Shown here: one piece after another, positions 13,349 to 61,755 of the stretch
Layout: the number at the start of each line of letters is the position of its first letter
Position numbering within the stretch: position 1 is the stretch's first letter
Sequence record: PV874203.1
Source: a phage
DNA: 64,000 nucleotides
Strand: one strand, 5' to 3'
The notes under the pieces: generated by a model
What the model was told of the DNA's origin: nothing
What the model saw: only the letters and a program-made list of their open reading frames with translations
The model's database searches: none
Made by a program: the position numbers and the translations under genes

Positions 13349-13357
13349 ATAATGTAT
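13349..13357 (+). promoter_or_regulatory. TAATGTATA promoter-like motif (candidate phage-specific promoter)
   Basis: TAATGTATATAGGGGG about 40 nt upstream of the 1488-aa gene; the same motif recurs upstream of other genes on both strands. Confidence 0.45.
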
Positions 13358-13396
13358 ATAGGGGGTAGGACATTTTTATTTATAAAAGGAGACGTT

Positions 13397-16300
13397 ATGG
13401 CTAACATTAAACCGTGGGAAGAAGCTTCCAAAGCTCCTGCGTATCTGAATGCCTCTCCGGAGCAACAAGCTCAAATGAGAGAACAATATAAGGCAGCAGG
13501 TGGCTCTATTCCTGAGGAACAACCAGTAGCACAACCACAACAAGAAGAACGTGGTGCTATAGGTGAGTTTGCTCAAGGTGTGTCAAATGCTCTTCAATCC
13601 GGTGGTGCAAACATTGCAGCTAGTGCTGCTAAAGGTATTGGTGGTTTAGTTGAGATTGGTGAGAATCTAGCTGGAGCACAAACTAGTTATGGTAAGCGTA
13701 TCCAAGAGAACTCTCAGAACCTTCTGAAAGAACGTATGGATAAGATTGAGGATGGGATTGGTAAAACTGTCGGTCAATATGCTGGTGTTGCTGGTGATAT
13801 TGGTTTGACAGTTGCTAACCCATTAGCTGCCGCCGCTATCATTGCAGGTCGTGAGACAGGTCGTGCATATGCAGACCAAACCCCTGAAGAGGGAGAAGAT
13901 AAGTCTATTCTAGATGCAGCCTTAGTTGGTGGTGCTAACTATGCGGCTCAGAGAATCCTTCCGGGTGCTGTTGGTACAGCTGAGTCCACACTTGGACGTA
14001 TTGGTCAGAACGTTGCTACTAACGCAGTGGCTGGTGCTAAAGGTGGTGCTCTTGTAGGTGCTGCTGAAGCTCAGAACAAGCATGGAGATGATACAACCTT
14101 TGCTAATGTATTAGAGGGTGCTATCGAAGAAGGTGCTATGGGTGCTGCATTCGGTGGTGCAGTTGGTGGTGTTCATGGTTTGATTAGCCGTCCGGATTCT
14201 GCTGTCTTCAAGAACACTCCAGAGTATGCGAAGACTGATATTGCTGCTGATGATGAACTGATTCGTAGTGCTAAGAATATTGATGAATTGAAAGAAGCTT
14301 ACTCTAAAGCTGAAACTGCTAACGCTGCTTCCGCTCTTAATCTTCTAGATGAGAATGGATTCCGTATCACAGATGCTGTTGCTGTAGATTCTCCTGCTGC
14401 CCAGCGTATTCTTAATACAGACCAAGCTCGTGCTGAGAAAGCTGCTTCTGTTCAGAAAGAACATTCTAATATTCCTGGCCTCAATCCTTTGGCTTCTCCT
14501 GCTAAAGTTCGTGGTAAAGCATTCGCTGATAACGAGCACAACCAGAAGCAAGCTGTTGCTATGAAAGATGCAATGGCTGATTACACAAAGGATAACACTA
14601 AAGCTCTTACAGATGTTCTGGATAATCTTGATCGTGAGTTAGTTTCTCTCCGAGCTTCTGGTGATTTTACTGGTAGTCCGATTGATATTAAGAATCGCAC
14701 ACAAGCTGATCGTGACTTCATTGATGCTTACAAGACTTTCTATAATGAAGCAAACCGATTCAAAGCTCGTGATGGTGAAGACTTTAATAACTTTGTAGAG
14801 AAAGCTACTGAACTACAGAAGATGGCTGACAATGTTTCTCCAGAGATGAAACAAGCTATTGGTGGGTTGAAGAAACTGAAAGGTATGCCTGAAGGTTTTA
14901 ATCCTATCCAAGACGCCTACACTCTGAACAACACAGCTAAGTTCATGAGCAACCAAGACCGTGGTTGGACTTCCCTTACTGATGATGGCTTCCGTGAGAC
15001 TTCTTCTCCTAGTCTGGTTATGAACACCCTTGGTGCTGCTAAGTATGCTCTGAATCGCTTCTCTTCTCAGCGTGCTCGCTCTCAACGTGTTAAGCAACAA
15101 GAATCTAACAGTGAAGCTATCCGCTCTCTGGCTCGTGGTGATTTGGAAGTTGCTCGTGCTAAATCCACTGCTGATGAAGCTCGTGCTAAAATGGAAGAAG
15201 AACCAGTTGTTGATGACATTAAATTTAAGACGCAAAATGACGTAGAAACCGAACCGGTTCGGGAGCCTTCTTCTAGTACTGTGACGGAAGAAAATCTTCC
15301 TTCTTCTGCTCCTCAAGAAACTCCTCTTACAGCTCGTGATTTAGTTGCGCAAAGACGTGCTATCCGTCAGGCTGAACAGCGTCGCGCTGAAGAAGAGGCA
15401 GCAGCTGCTCAAGAAGCTCCGGTCGAACAAGCTCCACAGGCTGAACCTCTCCCTGCTCGTAATCCTTTAGAGGAACGTCGTGCGATGGAACAGCAACGTG
15501 CTCAAGAAGAGGCCACACAGGCTCCAGAACCCACCGTAGAGGAACCAACAGTTAAAGCTGAGCCATTACCTGCTCGTGCTCCTAAAGCTCCTAAGGAAGC
15601 TGTACAGGACGTTAAACCGGCAAGTGGTGTAGAACGTTTAGCTGCTATGTCTAGTGCTGCTCGTCAGGCTACTAAAGATCGTGCAGAACGTTTTGCTCGT
15701 TCTCTGTATTCCAAGGCTGCTAAGGCTAAAGCTACTGCTGAAAACTTCTTGGCTTACAAGGGTGATCCTAAGGAACTGATGCGTCGCATTCGTCAGGAAG
15801 ATAATGCTATCAACACTGAACGTCATGAAGAAATGGCTCGTAACCAGTTAGCTTCTCAGCAAGGTATTGCTACTGCTAAGAACAACACTGTACGAACTAA
15901 TTTTGCTGAATGGGTTAAGGAACGTGGTCTGCCAGAAGATATTGCTACTAAGGCATTACGTGCTGAAGAGAAAGGTTTAGGTGGGAACGTGACTAACTTG
16001 GATAGTTTGAAACGTCGTGCTGAAAGGTTGTATCAGAAGCAGCGTGAGGCTGAGTTTGATAGACTGTACCAAGAAGCTCTGGAAGAGAACAAAGCTTTCG
16101 ATAAGAAGGATGCTCCTAAACTGGTTGACCAGAAGAAAGAGCTTCAGTCTGAGATTGATACTTTGATTGATTCAGAACCTTTACGTCCTGCTCAGAAAGA
16201 TGCTATGCGCAGGCTGATGAATGATTATGTAGATGGGAAGTTTAAATCTTCAGAGAAGGCTGGTAGGGAAGAGGCTTTGGAAGTTGGTCAGATGAAGGAT

Positions 16301-19704: not shown

Positions 19705-20487
19705 GTCCAGTCGAACAGGTCTTCCGGAGTCTGACCAACAAAGAGCAGCCGAGCATTCTCAAGCATTTTCTCTTCATCTTCAGTATCGAACTTCTTATAA
19801 TATTCCATTCGTACTATATGATACATGGTCCACTTATCTGTAACACCAGCCAACAGTTTAGCTGCTGCTTTCTTCCCTACTCCTTGACGTCGAAGCTGGA
19901 GCTTACCACCCCACATAACTTCTTTACGTTCTCCACATCCGGGGATATTATCTGTACCATCTCCAATCAACATCTGATAGAAGAAGTTTTGCCATGAAAC
20001 TAAATCAGATACGTAGTGAGGAGGAACCTCTTTTTGTCTTTCTCCACAAGCCCAACGGTAATGCCATCCGGGAGTTATTAACAAATCCTTGTCTCTTGTA
20101 CAGATAATAGTGTTCTTATCCCTACGTTGCCTTTCAGCTAATGCATCATCAGCCTCTCTCCCAAATACATCAATGTATTCATACTTACTCTTAATGTAAT
20201 CACCGACATTTTGCCAATGAAAAGGTCTTTCTCCGGGAGGTCTGTTTGCTTTGTAGTCTTGCTGCTTAGCAACATCAAAACGGAAATTACCACCTTCGCT
20301 GAAGTAGAATACAACCTTACTACAACCCGAGCGAGCTATGATTGTATCAATCTTGTACTGAAGTCGTTCAATCATGAAATTGTAATCAACTGGAACACGT
20401 CCTGTGTCAAGGAAGGGATGCTCTTGAGTAAGAGCACCTACTTCATATCGAAGAACGTCAGCGTCCACTATAGCAACTTCAGGGAGC

Positions 20488-22024
<1,537 letters not shown>

Positions 22025-22272
22025 AATGCATCTCTTTATAAACAGTTTCCGTGTTCTTCTTCCAGTTAGATAAACTGGTAAGAACTCTCTGAGCAACTTC
22101 ATCAGCTGCTCTATTTCTTTCAATCTCTAACTCTTGTTGATGCTTTTCTTTATCCAGATTGTTACTGTCTGTTCTGTACTCATTAAACTTCATACCACCA
22201 AAGAATACAAGAGCTGAGAAAACGATAAACCCTAAGTTATCACTTAACGTGTTTTGCATGTTGTCTCCAACG

Positions 22273-22297
22273 AAAAAAAAGCCACCCGAAGGTGGCT
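22273..22297 (-). terminator. rho-independent terminator (minus strand)
   Basis: Minus strand reads AGCCACC-TTCG-GGTGGCT followed by TTTTTTTT, directly after the SSB gene. Confidence 0.7.
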
Positions 22298-22318
22298 AAG
22301 CTATAACAAGGAGAGTTA

Positions 22319-23065
22319 TTAGAATGGGCTATCGTTGTCGTCTTCGTAAGTAGAAGCAGGCTCTTTATCAATCGTAGGGATTGAAGGAGTAGCTTCTTTC
22401 TGTTCTGTTTCAGAAGCACGAGTAATTTCACGACCAGCCAGAGGCATGTTCTTAGCATCATTAGCTTGAGTAAGCAGGTTGCGCTGGAACGGGAACATCA
22501 ATTGATAGGATGCTACGTTCTCATCGGTTTCAGCATATGGTTCGAAGAATACCAGAGGACTACGAGCTTCACCAACTGCTGCACGATATTTGGTTGGGAT
22601 TGGAGAAATGGTTTTGATGGAGTTTTTAACTTCACCGGCTTTGTTAGTGTAAGAGTTAACCAGAATGTTAACAGGCTGGCCTAACAGAACATCCTTGAAC
22701 CAAGACAGATCACCTTTCAGTGCTTGAATACTTGGGTCAATCATCTTGCAGAGATCAAGAATACCAGAGTTCTTAGCTCGTGGGTTTACATCATAGCTCT
22801 TGAACTGGCAAGCCGGACGTGGTTCTAATGCCTTACCATCGGAATCTTTACCAGTAGCATCAACACCAATCAGCTCGAAAGCCAAATCCATACGGAAAGC
22901 TGGATTCTTAGGAGTTACTGCTTTGGTCTTCGGGTCAATCCAAGGGTCTCGATTGTGAACACCCAAACCTACTACACGAACGATGCGTGCTTCGTACTCA
23001 CCATCAGGGATGATGTCGTAGTTGGATTTACGGGAAGAAGTTGCGATAGTTGGAATCATAGACAT
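22319..23065 (-). CDS. single-stranded DNA-binding protein
   Basis: 248 aa with acidic C-terminal tail ending ...YEDDNDSPF, the hallmark of SSB C-termini; lies in the replication block. Confidence 0.6.
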   Translation of the reverse strand: MSMIPTIATSSRKSNYDIIPDGEYEARIVRVVGLGVHNRDPWIDPKTKAVTPKNPAFRMDLAFELIGVDATGKDSDGKALEPRPACQFKSYDVNPRAKNSGILDLCKMIDPSIQALKGDLSWFKDVLLGQPVNILVNSYTNKAGEVKNSIKTISPIPTKYRAAVGEARSPLVFFEPYAETDENVASYQLMFPFQRNLLTQANDAKNMPLAGREITRASETEQKEATPSIPTIDKEPASTYEDDNDSPF

Positions 23066-23125
23066 ATTTTAATTTCCTTATTTAATTTTGAAAGATTGTT
23101 GCTCTCTTTGAGCGGTTATGTATAA

Positions 23126-23134
23126 TATACATTA
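23126..23134 (-). promoter_or_regulatory. TAATGTATA promoter-like motif (minus strand)
   Basis: Plus TATACATTA is the reverse complement of TAATGTATA, about 60 nt upstream of the SSB gene. Confidence 0.4.
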
Positions 23135-23186
23135 TAACTTTTGTAAGATAAGTATCATTTTATTGGTAGTAGATACTCACTAATGG

Positions 23187-23195
23187 TAATGTATA
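23187..23195 (+). promoter_or_regulatory. TAATGTATA promoter-like motif (plus strand) facing an ORF-free region
   Basis: GGTAATGTATATAAGG on the plus strand inside the 23066..23499 intergenic region. Confidence 0.35.
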
Positions 23196-23629
23196 TAAGG
23201 TAGAGTTAGAGAATAACTCTTGCACGGGACTGACGACGATAAGGCGCAGACGACAATCTCTCATAAGTTTGTAAGAAATTGAGAGACTACCGGAAGGGCA
23301 GGAGCCACCTGCGAGATAAAAATAGAGAATTAAGGAATCCTTGATTTAGGTTGTAGGGACTCCTAGGGACTTTGATTCTCTATTTAAAAGAATATTAATT
23401 ACTTACTACCTAAATAATTAACTAGCTTACTTAAACCAAATTCAAGAATAATAGATAAAAAGATTATTCCTAAGAAAGCTAAGAAGTAAAGGATATAAGT
23501 TACCATTCAAGTAAACCTTTAAAATTAGATTTTTCTACTATTCTCTGATAATGAAGATTAGAATCAGCTTGTTTCTTTAACATCTCATTATACCTATCTC
23601 TGATAGAGTCTTTATAAACTACAGGTTCT

Positions 23630-24133
23630 TTAAATAATGAGATCTTGTTCTTTTCTTCTTTCATCGAAAACCTTCCTAATCTCTTGCAGAGAAACAGCTT
23701 TATAATTAATTTGCTCCATTGATGTACAGAAATATCTCCAATCATCAATTACATGGTTATGAGTATGAGCATAAATATTAAACTTCCCTCTCATCTCATC
23801 AGAGTGAATAGGAATATGAGTTACCCAAAACTCTTTATATTTAAAGTCACCAGAGATTCTACGGAAGACTTTCATCATATCAGGGAGAAGTTCTAATCTG
23901 TCATGATTTCCTAAGACCAGATGCTTCTCTCCTCTAACTTCAGCGATGATATCAAGGGCATACTTTTCAAACACCCAATCACCTGTAAAGAAAACTTTAT
24001 CACGTTTGGTTACGTGGTCAAAAGCAGCCAGAATTGCTTTGTCATGCTCTTCAATGTTTTTAAATTGCTTACGAAAACTACAGATGTTGCGATGGCCTAA
24101 GTGACCATCTCCTGCAAAATAAACTTCAGCCAT
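23630..24133 (-). CDS. calcineurin-like metallophosphoesterase
   Basis: GDGHLGH, TGDWV and LGNHD motifs. Confidence 0.6.
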   Translation of the reverse strand: MAEVYFAGDGHLGHRNICSFRKQFKNIEEHDKAILAAFDHVTKRDKVFFTGDWVFEKYALDIIAEVRGEKHLVLGNHDRLELLPDMMKVFRRISGDFKYKEFWVTHIPIHSDEMRGKFNIYAHTHNHVIDDWRYFCTSMEQINYKAVSLQEIRKVFDERRKEQDLII

Positions 24134-24142
24134 AAAGACCTC

Positions 24143-24358
24143 TTAAATCAAGCATCCATCACAGGTTAAGTCACCTAATAGGGACAGGGAGAGTAATCTG
24201 GATTGTTCATCGCTGTACAGTTGATCAATCTCTTCTTTGAGTTTTGCCAATTCCATAAAATTAATAAGCTGTCCATGTTCTAGACAGTCTGTTTTCAATA
24301 TGAATAAAACATCAGCGTCTTTTGAATCTTCACTTGAGTATTTATCAATGTATTCCAT
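24143..24358 (-). CDS. hypothetical protein
   Basis: 71-aa ORF in a tightly packed array. Confidence 0.4.
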   Translation of the reverse strand: MEYIDKYSSEDSKDADVLFILKTDCLEHGQLINFMELAKLKEEIDQLYSDEQSRLLSLSLLGDLTCDGCLI

Positions 24359-24360
24359 TT

Positions 24361-24582
24361 TTATGCCACATCTCCTTGTTTATTGTTAATAACATCCAGT
24401 GCTGTATATGCTTTACCTGTTCCTAAGTATTCTAGAACTGGAGGACTTTTCTTCTCCTCAGCGACTACATAAGGTGTGATCTTTCCTTTCAGTACAGCCT
24501 GAGATGCTTTAGCGCTGTCTTCAGATGTGTGAACAGTAGTAAACCCTTTCTTTCCAATTCTATAAGTGTGAATCCAAATCAT
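24361..24582 (-). CDS. hypothetical protein
   Basis: 73-aa ORF, 2-nt spacing to neighbours. Confidence 0.4.
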   Translation of the reverse strand: MIWIHTYRIGKKGFTTVHTSEDSAKASQAVLKGKITPYVVAEEKKSPPVLEYLGTGKAYTALDVINNKQGDVA

Positions 24583-24594
24583 TTAATTTCCTTA

Positions 24595-25005
24595 TTAACG
24601 TATAACCAGAGGCTCTTCAGAGTACACAGGAGCGGCTATTTCTACAGGAGGTGCTGCCCTAAGGTCATTAAGTCTTACACCCTTCAGCATACCATCTAGG
24701 TGGTCCTTTTTGGGGATTCCAACAGGGAAATCGTCAATCCAGATATCTACAAAGAAACCTAACTGTCGACAAACCTCATCCTTCTGCACACCATTACAAA
24801 AGATGATAGGAATTTGCAAACACTCTGCATCAATCTTAATGTCGTGATTATCATATCCATTAGGCTCTGCAAAGCGATAAGTTACAAAACGTACATCATA
24901 ACCTTTAGCTTGCATTAATGTCACCACAGACCGCCACAGCTCCTTATCTGAGGTGTAAGTATCATCATAATCTAAACCGATATTCATGTCAAGTCCTTTA
25001 GACAA
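24595..25005 (-). CDS. hypothetical protein
   Basis: 136-aa ORF. Confidence 0.45.
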   Translation of the reverse strand: MSKGLDMNIGLDYDDTYTSDKELWRSVVTLMQAKGYDVRFVTYRFAEPNGYDNHDIKIDAECLQIPIIFCNGVQKDEVCRQLGFFVDIWIDDFPVGIPKKDHLDGMLKGVRLNDLRAAPPVEIAAPVYSEEPLVIR

Positions 25006-25219
25006 GAAAAGCCGCCCTAAGGCAGCTTCTTATTTAACTATTCACTTTAGCTTCAAGTGCTTCATTTTCGATACTCAAGTCAATCACTACGCCAGTAAGC
25101 TCAACGACTGCTTGGCGAAGGGCATCTTTACCCATAGAGTGTACTTGAGATAAGAAGAAAGCTTTACCTTCTTCAGTGGATAGGGTTTCTTTTAATTCAG
25201 AAGCAGTCATTGATATTCC

Positions 25220-25414
25220 TTATGTTATGTTATAAATTCGCATGATTGTACCACTATTGGCTTCAATAGCAGCAACCATTTGGTTTCGTTCTTCATCCGT
25301 GTAAACTAACACACTTCTAAACTCACCTGTTGCATCAGTATAAAGGATGTTGTATTTCGGAGGTGGCTTACGGTAGATACCTTCCATCATTCTTTCTCCT
25401 CTCGTTCTTTCCAC
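25220..25414 (-). CDS. hypothetical protein
   Basis: 64-aa ORF. Confidence 0.35.
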   Translation of the reverse strand: MERTRGERMMEGIYRKPPPKYNILYTDATGEFRSVLVYTDEERNQMVAAIEANSGTIMRIYNIT

Positions 25415-25570
25415 AGTTCAGCAAGTTCTAAATAAAACTCAGCTTCATCAGGACGTCCTTGTTCATTACAGATGGCGCTCTGGCGATAACACCAATCCGA
25501 TGGCATCTCTTCCACTTCAATCTCCTTGTTAAGAACCAATCAATAAGAATAGTTCATTCGTCTTATTTAT

Positions 25571-25765
25571 TCACTCTACCAATGCAGGTACTTCTATCCT
25601 TTTAACTGTGAATGTTTTGTTTGGAAACTTTCGAACTAACTCTGCTGCTTTGGTTATTGCTAAGTTCTCTGTCTCAAAGATACACAGTTGACCATTTAAT
25701 GCTACAAGAGTAGAGCCACCGCTGAAGACGGCCCAAGATTCATAATAACCACGAACACTCATCAC
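25571..25765 (-). CDS. hypothetical protein
   Basis: 64-aa ORF overlapping next gene by 4 nt (coupling). Confidence 0.4.
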   Translation of the reverse strand: MMSVRGYYESWAVFSGGSTLVALNGQLCIFETENLAITKAAELVRKFPNKTFTVKRIEVPALVE

Positions 25766-26130
25766 TCAACCTCAATATTATATAAAGATTTTAATGTATC
25801 TTTAACCCAAGAGATTCGTTTTTGGTTCTTATGATGTGCTCTGTTGTCCCTATCTCTGAAGTATTGATCACATCCAAAAGGATAAGTCTTGTCCAAGAAT
25901 TTATCCTGAGTGAACATGTTTTTCATATCATCTATATCTAGATGTTTTGTGAAATAATAATACCTCTTATAACAACGGAAGTTGAAACATAATCCATGAT
26001 CTTCGTTAAACCAAGGAGGGCACTCCTCTGTTTGAGTTATATGGTAGTATTGGAGGAGGAAGTCCTCCATCCCCCTCTCCTTGAATAAACACCTAAGTGT
26101 TCTGTAAACTATATTAGTTTCTTTCATCAC
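25762..26130 (-). CDS. hypothetical protein
   Basis: 122-aa ORF, Cys/His-containing. Confidence 0.45.
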   Translation of the reverse strand: MMKETNIVYRTLRCLFKERGMEDFLLQYYHITQTEECPPWFNEDHGLCFNFRCYKRYYYFTKHLDIDDMKNMFTQDKFLDKTYPFGCDQYFRDRDNRAHHKNQKRISWVKDTLKSLYNIEVE

Positions 26131-26135
26131 CTACC

Positions 26136-26288
26136 TCAATGGGTATGCATCCAATTCAATCCAATCTGACAATCAGATGCCAGAGGACATTCCATGTTCA
26201 AATACTCACCAGCCTTCTTAACACAAAGCTCGGTGTGCTCTTTGAGTTTCTGTACATCGTTACGATTAGCTGAGAACTGACCCTCATC
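26136..26288 (-). CDS. DNA polymerase C-terminal segment (3' exon; motif C and C-terminus)
   Basis: Minus-strand translation (M)DEGQFSANRNDVQKLKEHTELCVKKAGEYLNMECPLASDCQIGLNWMHTH aligns with the end of T7-type DNA polymerases (HDE...GPNWAICH); not in the ORF track because under 60 aa. Confidence 0.55.
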   Translation of the reverse strand, partial: DEGQFSANRNDVQKLKEHTELCVKKAGEYLNMECPLASDCQIGLNWMHTH

Positions 26289-26895
26289 CATTTATGTTAT
26301 TCCCAAATTACTTCGGGTATCGGACTATATCATAACAGCATAGCTAATTTGCTGTTGTTGGCGCTTCGAGGGTTTCCCTGTTAACCCCCTACTCCCGCAG
26401 GATAGTCTCTACACTTTCCACTTTCGAATCCATCTACAAGCGATTCCAAAGCTCACACCAAACCTTTCTGCAAGAGCAACACCAGTACATTCATTATTAA
26501 GCCAGAACTCTTTAGCAGCATCCTGTCTTTCTCTGTTTCTACCAGTATTTGATTCTATGGCATGTGCACTACCTTCTAAGATCTCTAGATGATCAGTGTT
26601 ACAACATGCCCTATTCTTGCATTTGTGGTTAACTTCGTAGCCGTCAGGAATGTTTCCAAACTTCTCTTCCATGACATACCTATGATACATGACCCATTTG
26701 CCATTTATCACTTTTCGAAAGTATCCATCTTTATTTAATTTGTGTGAGATAGGGATGATACATCCTGTGCTAGTTGTTTCTAGCACTAGATCTTTCTTAG
26801 CCATATCACCTCCTAATAGCTTAGCTCGGTATTGCCCTCAACTTAATGGTCGGGTTTCACCGAGTTCACCAACTTTTACATGCACAATGAAGTTT
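26289..26895 (-). mobile_element. putative group I intron in the DNA polymerase gene, carrying an HNH endonuclease ORF
   Basis: Upstream exon would end in U (…GAUAUGCAU), intron ends in G (…AUAAAUG) before GAUGAG; 3' part contains AGACUAUCCUGCGGG and AUGAUAUAGUCCG, matching conserved group I R/S elements (GACUA/UAGUC = P7). Boundaries approximate. Confidence 0.55.
26409..26804 (-). CDS. HNH homing endonuclease (intron-encoded)
   Basis: HRYVMEEKFGNIPDGYEVNHKCKNRACCNTDHLE HNH motif; strong RBS TAGGAGGTGAT; sits between the two polymerase segments. Confidence 0.7.
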   Translation of the reverse strand: MAKKDLVLETTSTGCIIPISHKLNKDGYFRKVINGKWVMYHRYVMEEKFGNIPDGYEVNHKCKNRACCNTDHLEILEGSAHAIESNTGRNRERQDAAKEFWLNNECTGVALAERFGVSFGIACRWIRKWKV

Positions 26896-28587
26896 ATGCA
26901 TATCAATTACCTTAGCACAACGAACCTTATCTCTCTCAATCCACTTGTTAAGGAACATCATAGCATATTTCATAACAACAGCACCAGCACATTGCAGGAG
27001 AGTGTTAAGTGCTTTATGAACCATAACCTTACCAGTGGCATCTCGTCTCATTGTAATCTTACGACCATCAACACCAATCAAGTACCCTTGAGCAGCTTTC
27101 TCTGTCATACGATCAATGAGGATTGCAATACATGGGTTCTCTGCCAAGAAACGTGCTCGCATCACTGAACCTTCGTCAGCCCCACCACCTACAATTGAAC
27201 CGAGCTTAGCATCACCAGCACCATAGTTGAATGCGTAGATAAATGTCTTAGCGTTGTCACGAGTAGGAAGACCAGCAAGTTTCTGGTTGTGGGAGTGTAT
27301 ATCACCTTCAAGGAGAATATCACGATACATAATAGCAGAAGCTAAACCACGTTCTGCCAGAGCTTTCTTAGCTGGATTGTTTTCTTCTATTGCTTCAGCA
27401 AGCATATCCCTACACTCTTTAATGAGGTAGTGTGCAAGCATACGCAACTCTAACCCAGAACCATCATACCCCAAGAATACTTCTTTACCAGCGGGTATGT
27501 AATATTTGTAAGCACCTACAGGTTTGTCTTTCTTCCCCGGCTTACCTTTCTCATAAATTACGTTAGTACCTTTTCGTATATAACAACCATCAGGAACAAC
27601 GTTAGTAATAACGAAAGGACGAGAGTGATCATCATCTGAGTTATAGTCAGATTCAAACAAACTGCGACACTCATGACCAAACAAACCACGGGAGGGAATA
27701 TTAACCACGATACGATGTTTGAATCGAAAAGTCGGCGTAGCGCAGCTGTTAGCTTCTGCCGAAAGTTTACCATCTTCGCGCTCCTTTGCTATAAGTCCAC
27801 TAATAAGACCTAGCCTGTGAGCCGCTACAACGCGTCTCTTAAGCAAACTTCCGACACTCCCTAGCTCACCCCCTAACCCTTCTTCAAGAGTCTCCTCGAG
27901 GTTTGTAGGGGCTGTAGGCCACTTGTTTGAGGTAGCTAGTGCTATCTTAATCTCATCAAAAGTAATAGGTCTACGTCGGTTAGGATTTAAACCTAAACCA
28001 AACACATAAGCCTTCATGTAGTTCTTAGTTTTAAACCGAAAATGCTTCTCTAAGAACTTTCTAATATCAGCGTCAACCATCTCGGCTGTCTGCTTCTGTT
28101 TAGCATTACCTCGCATCCAAGCTGAATACCATGCTTGGTATGTTCCATACTTTCGCATATCTTTCTTGATTTCAAAAGTATTCCAAGGTTTCTTTGATAC
28201 ATTAAACTCTGGAGGAAGAAAACCCTCATCCATAAGGGCTTCTTTAACTCGGGCATCTTTCGATGGGTCAAAGGCTACGTACTCTACACAGGTGAATGCT
28301 CCACCAATGTCTTCTCTCTTAAGTCCAACCCTATCACAATAGGCTTGAGGCCACTTCTGTAAAGCTCCAGACTTCTTAAATGGCTTCATATAAGTAGAGC
28401 CATCTAATCTCATCTTAGGTAAGAGAGGAATCAGTTCTTTGTCAATATTAACAATAATCTCTTTAAGGAGGTGAACATACCACCGAGCATTTCTTCGGTT
28501 GAAACTCACTCCGTGCTTCGCTTGCTTAGAGATTATATCAGCGACAGTCATCTCTGTCAAAAATGGGAGAGCGTCCGGGTTGCTCAC
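26866..28587 (-). CDS. DNA polymerase, family A (T7 gp5-like), polymerase domain; ORF runs into the intron
   Basis: RDNAKTFIYAFNYGAGDAKLG matches motif B of T7-type polymerases; ORF ends before motif C, which is supplied by 26136..26288. If spliced, the exon ends near 26896. Confidence 0.8.
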   Translation of the reverse strand: MSNPDALPFLTEMTVADIISKQAKHGVSFNRRNARWYVHLLKEIIVNIDKELIPLLPKMRLDGSTYMKPFKKSGALQKWPQAYCDRVGLKREDIGGAFTCVEYVAFDPSKDARVKEALMDEGFLPPEFNVSKKPWNTFEIKKDMRKYGTYQAWYSAWMRGNAKQKQTAEMVDADIRKFLEKHFRFKTKNYMKAYVFGLGLNPNRRRPITFDEIKIALATSNKWPTAPTNLEETLEEGLGGELGSVGSLLKRRVVAAHRLGLISGLIAKEREDGKLSAEANSCATPTFRFKHRIVVNIPSRGLFGHECRSLFESDYNSDDDHSRPFVITNVVPDGCYIRKGTNVIYEKGKPGKKDKPVGAYKYYIPAGKEVFLGYDGSGLELRMLAHYLIKECRDMLAEAIEENNPAKKALAERGLASAIMYRDILLEGDIHSHNQKLAGLPTRDNAKTFIYAFNYGAGDAKLGSIVGGGADEGSVMRARFLAENPCIAILIDRMTEKAAQGYLIGVDGRKITMRRDATGKVMVHKALNTLLQCAGAVVMKYAMMFLNKWIERDKVRCAKVIDMHKLHCACKSW

Positions 28588-28603
28588 TTTATACTCCTTT
28601 AAA

Positions 28604-29026
28604 TTATTGGTAAAGTAAATCTGTAAATGCTTGGTTATCTTCTATCACATCTAACACGGTAGCTTCATAGCTGTAAGCCCTAACCGCCCCGTTAACAACT
28701 ATCCGAGGAGTAGGTGGAGGTGGTGCATGGTTAGTCCTAGCTTCACGAGGTTGCTCTCGTACTAAATGAGCCACAACCCTTTGGTTAGCGACTTCTTCTC
28801 TTTCTCGGATAGCTCTCTGAATGTAAGCTAACTTCATACCCCAAGCTTCTTCAAACTCTTGAGGGTGCTTATCACTGATTACTACATACTGACGCTCAGG
28901 GATACCAGATCGAATCTCTGATAATAGCTCATGGAACAAATCCAGTTCATGTTCAGTGAGATTCATTTCAATATCATCCCACTTGAGAACTAAGAAACGG
29001 TTTTGATGTCTAGTCGGTAATGGCAT
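28604..29026 (-). CDS. hypothetical protein
   Basis: 140-aa ORF. Confidence 0.45.
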   Translation of the reverse strand: MPLPTRHQNRFLVLKWDDIEMNLTEHELDLFHELLSEIRSGIPERQYVVISDKHPQEFEEAWGMKLAYIQRAIREREEVANQRVVAHLVREQPREARTNHAPPPPTPRIVVNGAVRAYSYEATVLDVIEDNQAFTDLLYQ

Positions 29027-29183
29027 TCTACTCCACCTCTACTCTAACGTAAGTTCTCTCGCCCACATCATCTTTCCAGACCCATGCCTTGGCATCTTCT
29101 TCAGACTTAAAAACTTTCACAACGATGTATCCACCTTCCCATTCATCACCGCTCTGTCCTACGTAAACATATTCTTTCATTAT

Positions 29184-29468
29184 TTAACCTTTTGGGAATG
29201 GCATTAAAGATTCCATAGCATTTTTGATATCACTATTGATTCGTGCATCTCGATAAGAGATAAACTTACCTTTGCTATCACGGAACGTCACATGAGTTCT
29301 GGCTGTTTCGTAAGGAAGTAATCTAACACTGGTTGGGATAACATCAATCTCCACATAGAACTTGTCAATAGTCTTACTCTTAGCTAACAGATAAGACCAA
29401 GTACGTGGTTTCTGATCTGGGCGATTTGGGTATGTGTCTCGAATCTGAACCATAGCTAACTTATTCAT
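29184..29468 (-). CDS. hypothetical protein, tandem paralogue A
   Basis: Shares ...ARTHVTFRDSKGKFISYRDARINSDIKNAMESLMPFPKG with the neighbour. Confidence 0.5.
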   Translation of the reverse strand: MNKLAMVQIRDTYPNRPDQKPRTWSYLLAKSKTIDKFYVEIDVIPTSVRLLPYETARTHVTFRDSKGKFISYRDARINSDIKNAMESLMPFPKG

Positions 29469-29469
29469 A

Positions 29470-29721
29470 TTAAACTCCTTTAGGGAATGGGATGAGGTTT
29501 TCTACTGCAACACGGAAATCTTTCTCTACATCTTTATTCTTATAAGAAATGAATTTACCATCAGCACCACGTAGGATTACGTTAGTACGAGCTGTTTTTG
29601 GGTTATGACTAATCTGGTTTGCAATGATATTAGCAATGCCGTGATTATTGGTGAACTTCCATTTAACCATACGATTGTTAGACATTACATCAATGATATT
29701 TACAGATTTTACAATAGACAT
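29470..29721 (-). CDS. hypothetical protein, tandem paralogue B
   Basis: ...ARTNVILRGADGKFISYKNKDVEKDFRVAVENLIPFPKG; paralogue of 29184..29468. Confidence 0.5.
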   Translation of the reverse strand: MSIVKSVNIIDVMSNNRMVKWKFTNNHGIANIIANQISHNPKTARTNVILRGADGKFISYKNKDVEKDFRVAVENLIPFPKGV

Positions 29722-29749
29722 ATTTATTACCTAAGAAGTTTAATTTGGT

Positions 29750-29784
29750 TTATATAAAAGAAAAGGCCACCCATTTGGGTAGCC
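29750..29784 (-). terminator. rho-independent terminator (minus strand)
   Basis: Minus strand: GGCUACCC-AAAU-GGGUGGCC (one G-U pair) followed by a T-run. Confidence 0.55.
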
Positions 29785-29789
29785 TTATA

Positions 29790-30113
29790 TTACGATGAGC
29801 TTAAAGCTCCTTTTCGCTTAGCAGCACCAGCTGCTTTTCCAGCTCGATTACCACTTTTGCCGCCGTTTGAACGGTTTGAGCTGACTGATTCAATACGTAA
29901 GTTGCTTGACGCATTAGAGCCTCCAGACTTGACAGCTCGTTTGTGTCCAACATCTTTACCTCTGACAGCAGCTTTTCCATCGCGCTTTTCAACGATGCGA
30001 CGTGCACGGTGGCGCTGAGCATCTCCGCTCTTGCTCCCAACGCCTGTCTCACCACGGGCAATTGCGGTACGTCTTTCTTGTGCATAATCTCTCTTTCCTA
30101 CATGATCTGCCAT
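29790..30113 (-). CDS. small basic Gly/Ser/Arg/Lys-rich protein
   Basis: 107 aa; strong RBS TTAAGGAGTTTTAA-ATG; preferred over the overlapping alternative frame, which lacks an RBS. Confidence 0.45.
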   Translation of the reverse strand: MADHVGKRDYAQERRTAIARGETGVGSKSGDAQRHRARRIVEKRDGKAAVRGKDVGHKRAVKSGGSNASSNLRIESVSSNRSNGGKSGNRAGKAAGAAKRKGALSSS

Positions 30114-30139
30114 TTAAAACTCCTTAATATATCAGTGTA

Positions 30140-30148
30140 CACTAAGGA
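30140..30148 (-). promoter_or_regulatory. TAATGTATA promoter-like motif (minus strand)
   Basis: Plus TATACATTA about 30 nt upstream of the 29790..30113 gene. Confidence 0.4.
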
Positions 30149-30167
30149 GTATACATTATGGATGCTA

Positions 30168-30533
30168 TTAAAACTCTGCTAAGTATTTAATATCAGAGGC
30201 ATATACCTCATCAAAGGAAATAACTTCTCCATTGTAAAGAAGTTCTATCTTCAATATACCAGAGCATTTGGTGTCTTTAGAATCAACCCTGATAGAGAGT
30301 TTATCAACTATCTGAGCTTTAATCTCTTCTATTTCTGGCTCTTGAGTATACTCACTCCACCCTCCCGGTGGTACAAAATCATCGGGAACGTCAATGATAG
30401 TAGGTTCTCCATCATTCATGCAGGTATCTTCATTGAACTCTTCACACTCAAAGCATGCTCGTTCGATATTTTTGTAGAAGTCGATGGTTGCTGAACCATC
30501 ACCACAATCTCGGATAACTAAAGCGACTTGCAT
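30168..30533 (-). CDS. hypothetical protein
   Basis: 121-aa acidic ORF. Confidence 0.45.
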   Translation of the reverse strand: MQVALVIRDCGDGSATIDFYKNIERACFECEEFNEDTCMNDGEPTIIDVPDDFVPPGGWSEYTQEPEIEEIKAQIVDKLSIRVDSKDTKCSGILKIELLYNGEVISFDEVYASDIKYLAEF

Positions 30534-31273
30534 TTATCTTGTTCCTTTTCCATAGCTTTAACAATGGCCTTACAGAAACCAGAACGAACAATGTCATCCG
30601 ATTCTCCGTCTACAATCTCAGCGAACTCATATAGATCATGTTCATCAATAAAGTTAGTAGCCCAAGTAAGACCACTCTCACGACCACGCATATCATGCTG
30701 GTTAGTATCACCCATGCAGAACAGCTGAGAGGTTTCTCCCAATCTAGTCATGATTGAGAAGGCTTCATCTTTAGTGGTGTTCTGGAACTCATCAACGATA
30801 ACGATAGCATCATTGAAAGAACGACCACGGAGATATTCCAGAGGTACAAATTCAATGTTACTGTTACCGAGCTGGCATTCATAGAATCCCTTACCGTATC
30901 GCTGAGTAATAACATCAATGATAGGCATCAGATAAGGTTCAAACTTCTCGCGCATTCCTCCCGGAAGTAAGCCAAGAGAGTTACCCATGCCGACCGAAGG
31001 GCGACTCAGGATGATCTTCTGAATCTTACCACTCTTCAGTGCATCAATAACCGTGGAAGTGATTACAAAGGTCTTACCACAGCCCGCAGGAGCGTCTGTG
31101 AACACAACTTGCTTAGTCTTGATAGCATTGAGCAGCTCAGACTGGAACTGGTTCTGAGGGACTACAGGCTTTGCTAAAACCACCTCTTCAAACTCTCGCT
31201 TACCCTTACGAGTGACAAGTGCTTCCCGACGAAGGTCTTTCCGTGATTCTTTCCGTGATTGACGACGACTCAT
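30518..31273 (-). CDS. phoH: PhoH-like ATPase
   Basis: Walker A DAPAGCGKTF, Walker B IVIVDEFQNTT and TRLGETSQLFCMGDTNQHD match the PhoH family. Confidence 0.8.
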   Translation of the reverse strand: MSRRQSRKESRKDLRREALVTRKGKREFEEVVLAKPVVPQNQFQSELLNAIKTKQVVFTDAPAGCGKTFVITSTVIDALKSGKIQKIILSRPSVGMGNSLGLLPGGMREKFEPYLMPIIDVITQRYGKGFYECQLGNSNIEFVPLEYLRGRSFNDAIVIVDEFQNTTKDEAFSIMTRLGETSQLFCMGDTNQHDMRGRESGLTWATNFIDEHDLYEFAEIVDGESDDIVRSGFCKAIVKAMEKEQDKCKSL

Positions 31274-31467: not shown

Positions 31468-31652
31468 TCAGTAAGAGACCACAGAGAGTCACCTATGCGG
31501 GCATTGTCATTCCTGATGAGATCTTTAATTTTATCCACATCAGTTAAGTGTGTTACGTTCAAGATATCCTTAACCTCTGGGGCATATTTAAATATGGCAA
31601 CAATACTTTTATGATCTTCAGCATATCTTTCTAGAACATAAACTACGCTCAT
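31452..31652 (-). CDS. hypothetical protein
   Basis: 66-aa ORF. Confidence 0.35.
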   Translation of the reverse strand: MSVVYVLERYAEDHKSIVAIFKYAPEVKDILNVTHLTDVDKIKDLIRNDNARIGDSLWSLTEWTLW

Positions 31653-52057: not shown

Positions 52058-52315
52058 TTACTTAAAGATGAAATGTATAACTGCATCATATGCTTTAGAC
52101 AGAAGCCAACCTATCGGATAACAGACTCCTGCCAGTATTGAGATGGGCCATAACATAATTAAGATCACAACCATCATCTCATCAGGTTCAGAGCTGGTAG
52201 ACCCTGTTGTAATGACCCCTTTTAGTAGACCTTTCTTGTATAGCAGTTTCAGCACTAAAACAGAAAGGAATACTCCAATAAAGTAAACTGAGATAAAAAT
52301 ATCAAGTAAACCCAT
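52058..52315 (-). CDS. small membrane protein
   Basis: 85 aa, two hydrophobic helices. Confidence 0.45.
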   Translation of the reverse strand: MGLLDIFISVYFIGVFLSVLVLKLLYKKGLLKGVITTGSTSSEPDEMMVVILIMLWPISILAGVCYPIGWLLSKAYDAVIHFIFK

Positions 52316-53398: not shown

Positions 53399-53474
53399 TG
53401 GTGCACCCTACAGGACTCGAACCTGTAACCAACGACTTAGAAGGTCGCTGCTCTGTCCATTGAGCTAAGGGTGC
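53399..53474 (-). tRNA. tRNA-Arg (anticodon UCU), CCA encoded
   Basis: Minus-strand cloverleaf: 7-bp acceptor stem GCACCCU/AGGGUGC, D-arm GCUC/GAGC, anticodon loop CUUCUAA, T-arm ACAGG-UUCGAGU-CCUGU, 3' ACCA. Confidence 0.85.
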
Positions 53475-56966: not shown

Positions 56967-57228
56967 TAGCTACTCGCAAGTCTTCATTAGCACGAGCAAG
57001 GCGTAACACTTCATGGTTGAGGTTCTGAAGACGCTTGTTTCTGTCTTCAACTTGCATAATAAGATCGTTAAGAGTTTCTTTAACTTTCTCATTGTACATC
57101 TCATCCACTCGGACTAGAGATTTATACATTCTCTCCCAGCTTGCTGCTTTGTTTCTTAGAATAATAAATCCTATAACGCTGATAGTTAAACAGCTTACAA
57201 AAAGGAATTTATATACTTCTAAAGTCAT
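56932..57228 (-). CDS. membrane-anchored coiled-coil protein
   Basis: N-terminal TM helix (FLFVSCLTISVIGFIIL) then charged helical region. Confidence 0.45.
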   Translation of the reverse strand: MTLEVYKFLFVSCLTISVIGFIILRNKAASWERMYKSLVRVDEMYNEKVKETLNDLIMQVEDRNKRLQNLNHEVLRLARANEDLRVAIAKQQEINSDN

Positions 57229-57316
57229 ATTATTTACCCTTTATCAGAGATTAAAAGTAATATTATTTAAGTAAGTTATATTTAGTAAACTTATTTTCTA
57301 AGAAATTTTCAAAGGG

Positions 57317-57327
57317 TCTATATACAG
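57317..57327 (-). promoter_or_regulatory. TGTATATAG promoter-like motif variant (minus strand)
   Basis: Plus CTATATACAGAG is the reverse complement of CTCTGTATATAG, about 90 nt upstream of 56932..57228. Confidence 0.3.
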
Positions 57328-57427
57328 AGCATTACCCATAGTCCCAGAATACTACCATCTTTTTCAATAAATTTACTAAGTGGTTGGTTTATAAAGGAAT
57401 TTAGTTTGTCAAATCTGGCACTAGTGA

Positions 57428-58057: not shown

Positions 58058-58501
58058 CTATTTAACCCTTGCCTCTTTGATGGGGTCAATGTATTTCTCA
58101 ACGCCCCACTTGTGTTTACTATCTGCATAGAAAACATCAGGAGCACACTGGCTTGTCTTAGGAAAAGCCTGCGGGTCTTTCGTGCTACCCTTAAACTTCT
58201 GTTTACCACGGGTGCGACCATTACAGAAGATTTCTAACTTCTTCTCCTCTTCTGTTTTAGCTCCCCCGCTCTTTAACAAAGAACGTTTATGATCAGCTAA
58301 CAACAACGCATCAGCACGATGGACACGATGGCCTACACGTTTTGCCACACTAGAAGGGATATGAGATTCAGCCTCAGCTTTTGCAGCACGGCGTTTTAAA
58401 CTGCGCTTACTAATGTAATTGGTTGCCTTCGGCTTCCCTTTCTCCAGTTCAGAGATAGAAAAACAACGCCCGCCCTTCATGCTGATTTTAGATTTAGTCA
58501 C
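58058..58501 (-). CDS. basic hypothetical protein
   Basis: 147 aa, Lys/Arg-rich. Confidence 0.4.
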   Translation of the reverse strand: MTKSKISMKGGRCFSISELEKGKPKATNYISKRSLKRRAAKAEAESHIPSSVAKRVGHRVHRADALLLADHKRSLLKSGGAKTEEEKKLEIFCNGRTRGKQKFKGSTKDPQAFPKTSQCAPDVFYADSKHKWGVEKYIDPIKEARVK

Positions 58502-59269: not shown

Positions 59270-59270
59270 T

Positions 59271-60237: not shown

Positions 60238-61054
60238 CTTTCAATTGTAAGGGCACTATGCCCCGCTCTCTATGAGCTTGTTTAAGTCACTATTAACTTA
60301 ACTATAACCACTCGTTGTTAAGTAGTTATAGGTAAGCGGGGCGGTCTTATCAGGAGTTAACCTTGCCGCCCCCTTATCCGTGATGTTTCATCTGGTACGC
60401 TTTAATTTTCCGCTATAAATAAAGCCGGATTGCGTAGCGATGATCAATCATCACAATAAGGCTATGCGTCCAACTCAATTTAATTACATTGCTGTAACCG
60501 TTGGCAATATCGTCTACTTTGCTTTCGCTCCCGCCTATCCTTTGTGCCAACTCCTAACCGCTAACCATCGCCCACTACGGGAGGTTATTGCGGAAAGAGA
60601 TCATTGACCGCCTAATATTCCGGCGTTTTATATCTTTCGGCGGGTTTACTACATAACCCGACTATGTACTTCCGTCATAAGACGAATCTCAAGCCGTTCA
60701 CATCGTAAACGTTCGCATTAAACCTTATTGTTAAATAGCAATTTGCCACTTTTTAACCACTCCCCGCCGCCCTCAATTGGGCGTTAATTCGTCGGACTTG
60801 TCTGCCCTGATTAGTTTCTTTCACTGTAGCACCGTGTTAGCGATGGCCGCCGCTACCCTTAACCGTGGGCGATTAGCTTAAACCTTTGCGTGTACTCAAT
60901 GAATCCGCTTATCAGTGGCGACTTTTCCAGTTAAGGGATTGTAAAACTGTTTACCCTGATGTTTTAGGGAGTTTTACGCCGTTTTATCTGGTATGCTGTC
61001 CGATGGTTATTATCTTCCAGCATATTTAACCGATATATGGGAATGTTTAAATTG

Positions 61055-61065
61055 TTAAAGAGCGG
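61055..61065. repeat. TTAAAGAGCGG repeat, copy 1
   Basis: ATTGTTAAAGAGCGG; one of four copies in the ORF-poor region. Confidence 0.45.
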
Positions 61066-61288
61066 TAAATCTGTCAGCGTGCTTTCTCACGCTACGCAAC
61101 TGTTAGCCGTTGTTACGCTTTTCACTTAAGCGGTGATTTGCTTCAGTGATGCTCATTATGGACCATGATGTTTTTGCTGTCAACCGCTTTTTTAATCTTT
61201 TTCGTCGTTCCCGCTATTGGGAGGATATATCAACCCGCTTTATTGGGTTGAAGATTAAGCGATGAGGCTTAACCCATGATTCATATTG

Positions 61289-61298
61289 TTAAAGAGCG
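61289..61298. repeat. TTAAAGAGCG repeat, copy 2
   Basis: ATTGTTAAAGAGCG; plus-strand context gives TTGTTA-N17-TATAGT. Confidence 0.45.
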
Positions 61299-61562
61299 TT
61301 TAGCCTTTTATAGTGTCTGCTAATCACTGCATCATTAAAGGCTTACTTATTCATTAACGGGGCGCCTAATCCCGAACTACCCGCTGCACTATGTGCCACC
61401 TTTCCCGCGATACGTTGATTTAGGAACTAGTTAACGTTGTTTTGTTAACTTGTGGTTAGTATGAACTACCTTAACCACGTTTGCAACCCTTTTTTATCAT
61501 CTTCTTTTATTCTTTTCCCTTATCTCGCTTGAATCTATGCGAAAGGGCAAGATGATAAGTTT

Positions 61563-61573
61563 TTAAAGAGCGG
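61563..61573. repeat. TTAAAGAGCGG repeat, copy 3
   Basis: TTTTTAAAGAGCGGG; lies just downstream of the predicted minus-strand sigma70 promoter. Confidence 0.45.
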
Positions 61574-61602
61574 GATGCTTTAAGTCATCGCTGACTATGC
61601 TC

Positions 61603-61631
61603 ACTATATATCAGGCTATTTTCGGTGTCAA
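61603..61631 (-). promoter_or_regulatory. sigma70-type promoter (minus strand), candidate early promoter
   Basis: Minus strand reads TTGACA-17 nt-TATAGT (plus tgtcaa 61626..61631, actata 61603..61608). Confidence 0.55.
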
Positions 61632-61670
61632 TACTCTTTTTAAGAATATTTTCACTTTCTAGCCTGATTT

Positions 61671-61683
61671 TTAAAGAGCGGGG
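61671..61683. repeat. TTAAAGAGCGGGG repeat, copy 4
   Basis: TTTTTAAAGAGCGGGG. Confidence 0.45.
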
Positions 61684-61727
61684 CAATTTCTTGCCTTGTA
61701 TGTTTTTCATCGTACCCGATGAATTGA

Positions 61728-61755
61728 AGTATACATTAATCAGTGAGGGATGCAA
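61728..61755 (-). promoter_or_regulatory. sigma70-like promoter overlapping a TAATGTATA motif (minus strand)
   Basis: Minus strand TTGCAT-16 nt-TATACT; the -10 overlaps TAATGTATA (plus 61730..61738). Confidence 0.4.

Follow-up and report, generated by a model that had tools for sequence, protein, structure and literature searches.

The motif repeated across the 64,000-nucleotide stretch of phage DNA analysed here (sequence record PV874203.1, hereafter the window) is the already characterised promoter element of the phage sigma factor gp36. We hold with high confidence that (T/A)AATGTATA is the -10-like element of middle and late promoters read by E. coli core RNAP together with gp36. The source is a Kuravirus, a phiEco32-like podophage. 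Its DNA is approximately 92 % identical to phiEco32 and, in a BLAST mapping onto EU330206 (phiEco32) and its annotation, colinear with it across the whole window, which begins at position 12683 of phiEco32. Six gp36 promoters have been mapped in phiEco32 (P6, P13, P26, P40, P58 and P68), with the consensus tAATGTAtA and transcription starting 6-8 nt downstream (PMC8948821, PMC4281155, PMC4331800, PMC12276001). P6 and P13 fall outside the window, while window positions 13351, 23126, 30150 and 34578 align to phiEco32 26015, 36632, 42937 and 46862, upstream of genes 26, 40, 58 and 68. A preliminary description made from the letters alone had listed seven motif copies, all of which are present in the sequence, had read them as promoters for RNAP carrying a phage sigma factor, and had linked them to a motif of this type reported for phiEco32-like phages. 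As four of the seven sites are orthologous in position to mapped gp36 promoters and tAATGTAtA is the experimentally established gp36 element, that interpretation is right, and was already known. By orthology with the published promoters, these four sites are expected to fire in this phage. The four orthologous promoters are as follows.

13350 to 13358, plus strand: P26, late promoter, -10-like element TAATGTATA, orthologous to phiEco32 26015; predicted start ~13365, gene 26 homologue starting at 13397.
23126 to 23134, minus strand: P40, middle promoter, TAATGTATA, orthologous to phiEco32 36632 (minus strand); predicted start ~23119, gene 40 homologue starting at 23065.
30150 to 30158, minus strand: P58, middle promoter, TAATGTATA, orthologous to phiEco32 42937 (minus strand); predicted start ~30143, gene 58 homologue starting at 30113.
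34578 to 34610, minus strand: P68, middle promoter, -35 block TTGGTAGTAGATA at 34598-34610 and -10 element AAATGTATA at 34578-34586; predicted start 34571, gene 68 homologue starting at 34538.

Orthologues of both phiEco32 transcription proteins are encoded within the window.

21120 to 21764, minus strand: sigma factor gene, orthologue of phiEco32 gp36 (214 aa; 210 of 214 residues, 98 %, identical to PDB 9m7y chain F, E = 2e-143).
40338 to 40586, minus strand: gp79 orthologue (82 aa; E = 1e-51 to PDB 9m7y_G / 9m7z 'gp79').

The 98 % identity to gp36 bears out the sigma-like factor earlier proposed at 21120-21764. All of the published DNA- and RNAP-contact residues of gp36 are kept (E79, H80, Y83, R84, W90, S91, S94, N95, Y186 and R187), as are its clamp and flap contacts. 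Pfam returned a weak Sigma70_r2 match below the gathering score (E = 0.0015; 18.8 bits, the cut-off being 24) and no region 4 profile match for this protein. gp79 inhibits the sigma70 holoenzyme and co-activates the gp36 holoenzyme (PMC12276001). In the cryo-EM open complex of RNAP, gp36 and gp79 on P68, gp36 reads AATG and its C-terminal domain contacts -37G and -34A (PMC12276001). By homology with this solved complex, the N-terminal domain of gp36 would read A-14, A-13, T-12 and G-11 with the DNA melted from -11, leading to a transcription start 6-8 nt past the motif, while the C-terminal domain would touch G-37 and A-34 of the -35 region. The gp79 orthologue would displace sigma70 region 4 and stabilise gp36, the two proteins together switching transcription from the sigma70-driven early genes to the middle (P68, P58 and P40) and late (P26) genes. 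Because the P40 operon includes the sigma gene, transcription from P40 would close a positive loop.

Among relatives the motif stays invariant where its flanks diverge. P26, a mapped late promoter used in vitro (PMC12276001), has a -10-like element invariant in 6 relatives, and at P40, where the upstream sequence is divergent, 8 distinct relatives all keep the -10 element and -34A. At P58 atAATGTATActccttagtgta is invariant among relatives despite the lack of a conserved -35 region, the sequence upstream of -16 being wholly unrelated. From -46 to +8 the P68 sequence of the window equals that of phiEco32, and the gp36-contacted -37G and -34A correspond to the G and A in GGTA. G-37 and A-34 occur at identical spacing at P68, at a site divergent from P40 that we call Px, and at 57330-57356, and A-34 is also invariant at P40; P26 and P58, both single-element promoters in phiEco32, lack these -35 contacts. 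A 15-bp hairpin with a U-run after it encloses the P26 motif.

Exact TAATGTATA is found at 13350-13358 (+), 23187-23195 (+), 23126-23134 (-), 30150-30158 (-) and 61730-61738 (-), and AAATGTATA at 34578-34586 (-), so that six sites (13350, 23126, 23187, 30150, 34578 and 61730) agree with tAATGTAtA; for TGTATATAGAC at 57316-57326 (-) the agreement is limited to the 3' half of the motif. The copy previously placed at 30140-30148 exists, but its true place is 30150-30158, 10 nt away. Every copy had been described as lying 30-90 nt before a gene start. This holds for genes 26, 40, 58 and 68, where the copies are co-oriented with the gene and 30-54 nt upstream of its start, but not for the plus-strand copy at 23188, which faces away from gene 40 towards ORF-free DNA. 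Two exact AATGTATA copies, both in coding sequence, were absent from the original list.

57123 to 57130, minus strand: AATGTATA within the coding sequence of the gene 116 homologue, with G at -15, no -37G and no functional support.
52072 to 52079, plus strand: AATGTATA antisense in a minus-strand ORF; absent from phiEco32 and a chance match.

Separately, AATGTAGA at 63712 (-) was considered as a P6-like site and rejected, as it resembles P6 but carries G at -15 and lacks further support.

The site divergent from P40 combines a perfect -10 element with the -35 block and 16-nt spacing of P68, and faces a conserved region in which no plus-strand ORF of at least 22 aa is found.

23163 to 23195, plus strand: Px, candidate seventh gp36-type promoter, -35 block TTGGTAGTAGATA at 23163-23175 and -10 element TAATGTATA at 23187-23195; predicted start 23202.
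23202 to 23391, plus strand: ORF-free conserved region, candidate ncRNA, with a 5' stem-loop (23200-23223, around the predicted +1), a variable stem-loop module, a GCAGG hairpin (23298-23312) and a long composite hairpin (23321-23384).

GGTAGTA-N16-AATG occurs three times in the window (P68, Px and 57316-57356) against 0.16 expected. Across 14 distinct relatives, representing 3 genera, TGGTAGTA and gtAATGTATAta of Px do not change while the spacer is free to vary. Relatives were also sought through the gp117 homologue, a small protein of wide occurrence, which gave 80 loci with only 6 of use; the more distant 7-11-like loci (L008-L010) yielded no Px-type region. A scan of IMG/VR for GGTAGTA-N16-AATGTATA gave more than 120 contigs, mostly unrelated, which is the chance level for so large a collection and makes the scan uninformative. 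Px is not among the six published promoters, being absent from PMC8948821 Table S3, from the SU7 and Paul annotations and from the original mapping as conveyed by later summaries. At 23187 (+), where a promoter upstream of a gene had been claimed, the motif is real but is followed by non-coding DNA and no gene.

Since Px faces an ORF-free, highly conserved and structured region, it probably makes a new structured ncRNA of 165-190 nt. We lean slightly towards the full reading in which Px is a genuine seventh gp36 promoter of Kuravirus, Suseptimavirus and Nieuwekanaalvirus, directed against the surrounding gene flow and producing such an RNA in no described family. In that reading the RNA may act in regulation or as an antisense transcript where the gene 41 operon ends, or it may prime or activate a replication origin, as happens in T7 and T4. 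The GC/AT skew turns at ~17.9 kb, where gene orientation flips, and is uninformative on an origin at 23.2 kb. The 3' ~100 nt of the region are nearly invariant across genera in which the gp40 proteins are only 83-85 % identical. Within the 5' stem (AGAGUUA...UAACUCU in the window, AUAGCU...AGUUAU in phiEco32) two pairs show compensatory changes and one a G-C/G-U switch, although covariation is confined to this one short stem and its pair count was reached by 121 of 500 shuffles. Rfam gave a tRNA-Arg as the sole match at gathering threshold in the whole window and nothing credible in 23050-23650 at E <= 5, and no homologue of the region was found among 5,426 E. coli genomes. No account of a small ncRNA from Px was found in the literature that followed the original phiEco32 mapping or in its summaries of that work.

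It is possible, if rather doubtful, that Px does not work, that its motif is a relic or a decoy for the gp36 holoenzyme, and that the conserved block downstream is a minus-strand DNA or RNA element, such as the terminator closing the gene 41 operon just ahead of P40, or an origin of replication. The minus strand folds better than the plus strand (z = -4.8 vs -3.1, the plus-strand MFE being -53.9 kcal/mol) and offers the better U-run after the long hairpin (UUUUUAU as against UUUAAAA), and the invariance of the 3' ~100 nt leaves no covariation there. Such a reading has to contend with both Px elements being conserved as footprints at fixed spacing in 14 distinct sequences whose spacer is free to vary, and with a covarying 5' stem situated at the predicted +1 of Px. 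The G-U pairs of this stem would be A-C on the minus strand, although the structure was predicted on the plus strand, which biases this comparison. Nor does a terminator alone explain ~100 invariant nucleotides, loops included, and a terminator would in any case be compatible with a working Px promoter.

The third occurrence of the -35 block lies at the copy previously described at about 57317.

57316 to 57356, minus strand: gp36-like bipartite site lying upstream of the gene 116 homologue and reading GGTAGTA-N16-AATG, then CTC-TGTATATAGAC.

Here 5 relatives retain GG.AG and GGTAATG at the same spacing, with a 1-nt indel between AATG and TGTATATAG. The site reads AATGCTCTGTATATAG, with CT in place of TA at -10/-9, and so departs from tAATGTAtA; it is not on the published phiEco32 promoter list. 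What had been called a copy of the promoter motif is a conserved bipartite site with an atypical -10, a putative non-canonical site carrying the P68-type -35 block.

The copy at 61730 is of a different kind.

61728 to 61755, minus strand: probable sigma70-type early promoter TTGCAT-N16-TATACT at the head of the early gene cluster, its -10 overlapping a TAATGTATA particular to this phage.

Four sigma70 promoters have been reported for the early gene cluster of phiEco32 (PMC8948821). Relatives keep TTGCA, GTATACT and the upstream A/T tract, but neither the spacer nor AATG, which is replaced by GGCG, AGCG or CGCG and recurs only in IME267. With 3/6 and 5/6 hexamer matches the site is too weak for a sigma70 consensus scan to call. 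The motif is real, but with AATG not conserved its earlier assignment to the phage sigma fits less well, and the site appears better explained as the -10 of a conserved sigma70-type early promoter.

That all of the copies are host sigma70 promoter variants, with an AT-rich -10 (TATAAT or TATACT) not read by the phage sigma, is very improbable. The conserved TTGCAT-N16-TATACT at 61730 fits such a reading, as does the sequence of P26 and P40, TATAATGTATA, which holds a perfect TATAAT within it (TATAAT-GTATA), so that sigma70 could read both as well; a sigma70-like site over P40 scored 10/12 in our scan, and dual use of such sites was proposed by the SU10 authors (PMC4281155). The conserved bases, however, reach past the sigma70 hexamer, with G-11 and T-10 invariant, and the P58 motif is invariant even though it has no conserved -35 region. 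Initiation at these promoters in vitro depends on the gp36 holoenzyme, and the structure has gp36 itself reading AATG (PMC8948821, PMC12276001).

The frequency of the motif in coding and non-coding DNA, proposed earlier as a check, also favours promoter elements. Exact AATGTATA occurs 8 times in the window against 2.95 expected, a count reached by only 1 of 100 dinucleotide shuffles, but with one mismatch allowed the signal is gone (25 vs 20.2 expected), so that it resides only in near-perfect copies. Non-coding DNA makes up 10.4 % of the window at 39 % GC and contains 5 of the 8 copies against 0.39 expected under a first-order Markov model (binomial P = 5e-4 for 5/8). The start of gene 26, which a crude ORF map had put at an ATG within the motif, was corrected by hand for this test. 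The 61730 (-) copy, within the non-coding early-promoter region, was counted as coding, the spurious 67-aa ORF at 61585-61788 being dropped only for a later hexamer listing; disregarding this ORF brings the count to 6 of 8. This bias in location is stronger evidence than the enrichment in copy number. That the enrichment reflects shared ancestry and the AT-richness of intergenic DNA, and the motif has no function, as the loss of enrichment at one mismatch and an intergenic GC of 39 % might suggest, has next to no probability given 5-6 copies against a composition-matched intergenic expectation of 0.39, the invariance of the motif where its flanks were replaced (P58 and P40), and the published in vitro transcription and primer extension at orthologous sites.

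The gp36 system of the window matches that of phiEco32 in its motif, its sigma (98 %), its co-factor gp79 and its positions before orthologous genes. At P26, P40, P58 and P68 it differs only by a few flanking substitutions and by a P40-Px motif spacing of 62 bp rather than 73 bp, while the TAATGTATA copy at 61730 is absent from phiEco32 and Px and 57316-57356 lie outside its published set of six. Salmonella phage 7-11, of a related subfamily, likewise replaces sigma70 with a phage sigma for its late genes from equivalent promoter positions (PMC8948821). Its sigma, SaPh711_gp47, is however only ~15 % identical and uses a different consensus, the bipartite GTAAtg-N16-aCTA (PMC8948821), with no gp79 and no middle class. 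As in T4, where AsiA acts with MotA, a small phage protein moves sigma70 region 4 and a second factor gives specificity (compared in PMC12276001), but T4 retains sigma70 with an activator whereas in phiEco32-like phages a separate phage sigma replaces it. With the ECF (group 4) sigmas gp36, labelled 'ECF sigma' in GenBank and PDB, shares two domains, sigma2-like and sigma4-like. This resemblance comes from structure and not sequence (PMC12276001), in which gp36 is marginal: the 21120-21764 protein lacks the significant region 2 and region 4 profile matches that define the class. AATGTA is also unlike ECF -10 motifs and several gp36 promoters need no conserved -35.

Tying each site to its published promoter aids the annotation of this genome, as most deposited relatives have none of these promoters annotated. 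Going slightly beyond the literature, a GGTAGTA -35 block at a fixed 16-nt spacing is common to three promoters, counting the two candidates, in agreement with the 2025 structure and contrary to the earlier 'single-element' description, and one of these, Px, faces a conserved non-coding region. If the RNA predicted from Px is real, it would give a well-studied model phage group a small RNA that depends on a phage sigma.

The window is colinear with phiEco32 (EU330206, loci L001 and L002) at mostly 85-96 % identity in the BLAST map, with phiEco32 position 12683 corresponding to window position 1. Megablast of 20000-32000, 1-25000 and 39001-64000 recovered about 100 Gordonclarkvirinae podophages of Escherichia and Shigella at 90-96 % identity, none of these matches being an identical record. 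As in phiEco32, plus-strand genes up to ~17.8 kb are late and structural and the minus strand thereafter carries middle and early genes.

In phiEco32 the promoters of the phage-encoded sigma factor gp36 precede genes 6, 13, 26, 40, 58 and 68 (P6 to P68, named by downstream gene) and share one common consensus, tAATGTAtA, transcription beginning 6-8 bp downstream of it (PMC8948821). Table S3 of that paper holds exactly those six promoters in six relatives, and PMC4281155 and PMC4331800 agree with it on the phiEco32 promoters. The AATGTA lies at -14 to -9, and at P68 gp36 contacts A-14, A-13, T-12, G-11, G-37 and A-34; gp79 inhibits the sigma70 holoenzyme, stabilises gp36 at the promoter and activates P26 and P68 (PMC12276001). 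These published promoters support the proposal of the preliminary description that the motif marks promoters for RNA polymerase carrying a phage sigma factor.

Features of the window
13351, plus: P26, late promoter; predicted start 13365, gene starts 13397
21120-21764, minus: gp36 sigma factor orthologue; 210/214 identical to PDB 9m7y chain F, E = 2e-143
23126, minus: P40, middle promoter; start ~23119
30150, minus: P58, middle promoter; atAATGTATActccttagtgta invariant, upstream of -16 unrelated among relatives
34578, minus: P68, middle promoter; identical to phiEco32 from -46 to +8
P68, 23165-23191 (plus) and 57330-57356 (minus): GGTAGTA-N16-AATG sites from a pattern scan
23321-23384, plus: predicted long composite hairpin in the near-invariant ~100 nt downstream of Px
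same ~100 nt, plus: predicted GCAGG hairpin
40338-40586, minus: gp79 orthologue, 82 aa; E = 1e-51 to 9m7y_G
53399-53474, minus: tRNA-Arg, anticodon TCT, annotated likewise in phiEco32
61052-61064, 61286-61298, 61560-61572 and 61668-61680, minus: CGCTCTTTAA(A/C)AA, after sigma70-type early promoters
58267-58279, plus: fifth CGCTCTTTAA(A/C)AA copy

The identity to phiEco32 gp36 bears out the sigma-like factor suggested at 21120-21764. All promoter-reading residues (E79, H80, Y83, R84, W90, S91, S94, N95, Y186, R187) are kept in this ORF, as are the reported polymerase clamp and flap residues; Pfam alone was insufficient for the assignment since Sigma70_r2 scored under the cut-off.

Recurrence of the motif was confirmed, with eight copies of AATGTATA in the window against 2.95 expected, a count attained by 1 of 100 shuffles, although with one mismatch permitted the enrichment over the whole window is gone (25 vs 20.2). 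Location carries more weight: the non-coding 10.4 % of the window contains five of the eight (six if a spurious ORF across 61730 is ignored), against 0.39 expected there from a composition-matched model. Copies before genes 26, 40, 58 and 68 are co-oriented with the gene and 30-54 nt from its start. Positions described earlier were accurate within 1-2 nt, save for the minus-strand site at 30150-30158, which had been put 10 nt off. Two further copies, 57123(-) and 52072(+), lie within coding sequence and lack flanking features, so a promoter role for them is unsupported.

The P40 operon extends through the sigma gene and would therefore be self-reinforcing. A palindrome, ATGTATA-N-TATACAT, spans 23117-23133 with one half forming the P40 -10; relatives vary its central base and retain both arms, and it may serve as an operator or as another near-consensus site facing the opposite way (TTATGTATA, plus strand). 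A 15-bp hairpin (13337-13380(+), -22.8 kcal/mol, z = -4.7) contains the P26 -10 in its loop and upper stem and is followed by UUUUUAUUU; the arrangement looks like an intrinsic terminator that serves the gene 25 transcript and overlaps this late promoter. P58 is a clean single-element footprint. Read-through RNA over it (30105-30165(-), wholly invariant among relatives) is predicted to pair ACUCCUUAGUGUA with UAAGGAGU, the Shine-Dalgarno region of the gene 58 homologue, in a hairpin of 13 bp (-17 kcal/mol, z = -3.1). Without the 5′ arm, RNA from the predicted +1 (30143) is left unstructured (-1.6 kcal/mol), so P58 may also unmask translation of this gene.

At 61730(-), at the head of the early cluster, relatives retain TTGCA and GTATACT on either side of a variable 16-nt spacer; the AATG of the window is GGCG, AGCG or CGCG there, IME267 alone sharing AATG. 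Four sigma70 promoters are reported at the phiEco32 early cluster (PMC8948821). Most probably this is a sigma70 promoter of the early class, its -10 TATACT completing the motif by chance in this phage, and dual use by sigma70 and gp36 is conceivable. Above the 63088-63579 ORF, the spacer contains ctgAATGTAgaaag at 63712-63717(-), which resembles the P6 variant TAATGTAgA and has G at -15. In a more distant relative (IMGVR_UViG_3300013023_000001, L009 303-310(+); gp40 67 % identical, 88-kb genome) tttatAATGTAtataat directly follows a GC-rich terminator hairpin, as at P26 and P13, and the motif may thus range beyond the E. coli genera.

CGCTCTTTAA(A/C)AA occurs five times in the window against 0.24 expected, and its four minus-strand copies are invariant in most relatives. 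We take it to be a 12/13 match to E. coli rrn boxA (TGCTCTTTAACAA), so early transcripts may recruit NusB/NusE for antitermination; we found no paper connecting phiEco32 with boxA.

GGTAGTA-N16-AATG occurs three times in the window against 0.16 expected, and phiEco32 has the same three sites. At P68, TTGGTAGTAGATA occupies -39 to -27, its GGTA supplying G-37 and A-34 of the structure. The site within the gene 117/116 spacer (57330-57356(-)) keeps GG.AG, GGTAATG and their distance in five relatives; TGTATATAGACC after its AATG is also conserved, but shifted by a 1-nt indel. A motif copy had been placed here at about 57317; TGTATATAGAC is literally present (57316-57326(-)) but agrees with the motif over its 3′ half only. 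The site has a P68-type -35 and the four bases that gp36 reads by hydrogen bonds, but CT rather than TA at -10/-9; it is a possible weak or regulated gp36 promoter.

The remaining site belongs to Px, a candidate seventh gp36-type promoter (23163-23195(+)) that stands back-to-back with P40, the distance between them varying (62 bp in the window, 73 bp in phiEco32). Px has a perfect TAATGTATA at 23187-23195(+) and TTGGTAGTAGATA at the exact P68 spacing; TGGTAGTA and gtAATGTATAta stay unchanged, with the 12-nt spacer free to vary, in 14 distinct sequences that represent Kuravirus, Suseptimavirus and Nieuwekanaalvirus. It is absent from the six published promoters as listed in Table S3 of PMC8948821 and unannotated in the SU7 or Paul records.

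All annotated relatives fetched have a ~300-nt minus-strand gene gap at this position, and no plus-strand ORF of at least 22 aa was found downstream of Px. The predicted transcript starts inside a stem-loop in which relatives show two pairs with both partners replaced (U-A to G-C; C-G to U-A or A-U) and a third that alternates between G-C and G-U. A second stem-loop module has two unrelated versions among relatives, the window having the long one, and is followed by ~100 nt near-invariant across genera whose gp40 proteins are just 83-85 % identical. On balance we lean towards a putative gp36-dependent non-coding RNA. The main rival, in which the motif copy is silent and the region is a minus-strand terminator or a DNA element, seems less likely. 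The region folds better than shuffles on both strands (z = -3.1 plus, -4.8 minus), and since the U-run of the long hairpin is better on the minus strand, termination of the gene 41 operon may be a further function. Of the 51 G-U cells in the consensus structure all fall on the plus strand, the strand used for predicting the structure, which biases this test. For the putative RNA we found no Rfam family, E. coli homologue or counterpart in 7-11-like relatives. The region also holds tandem AGGGACU copies (23353-23372(+)); the ECBP2, Paul and EK010 lineages have lost one G jointly from both, and this concerted change suggests that they are read as a pair.

The feature is already known: the window carries the gp36/gp79 transcription switch of its close relative phiEco32; the residual novelty is the -35 block common to three promoters, together with candidate Px and its conserved non-coding region.
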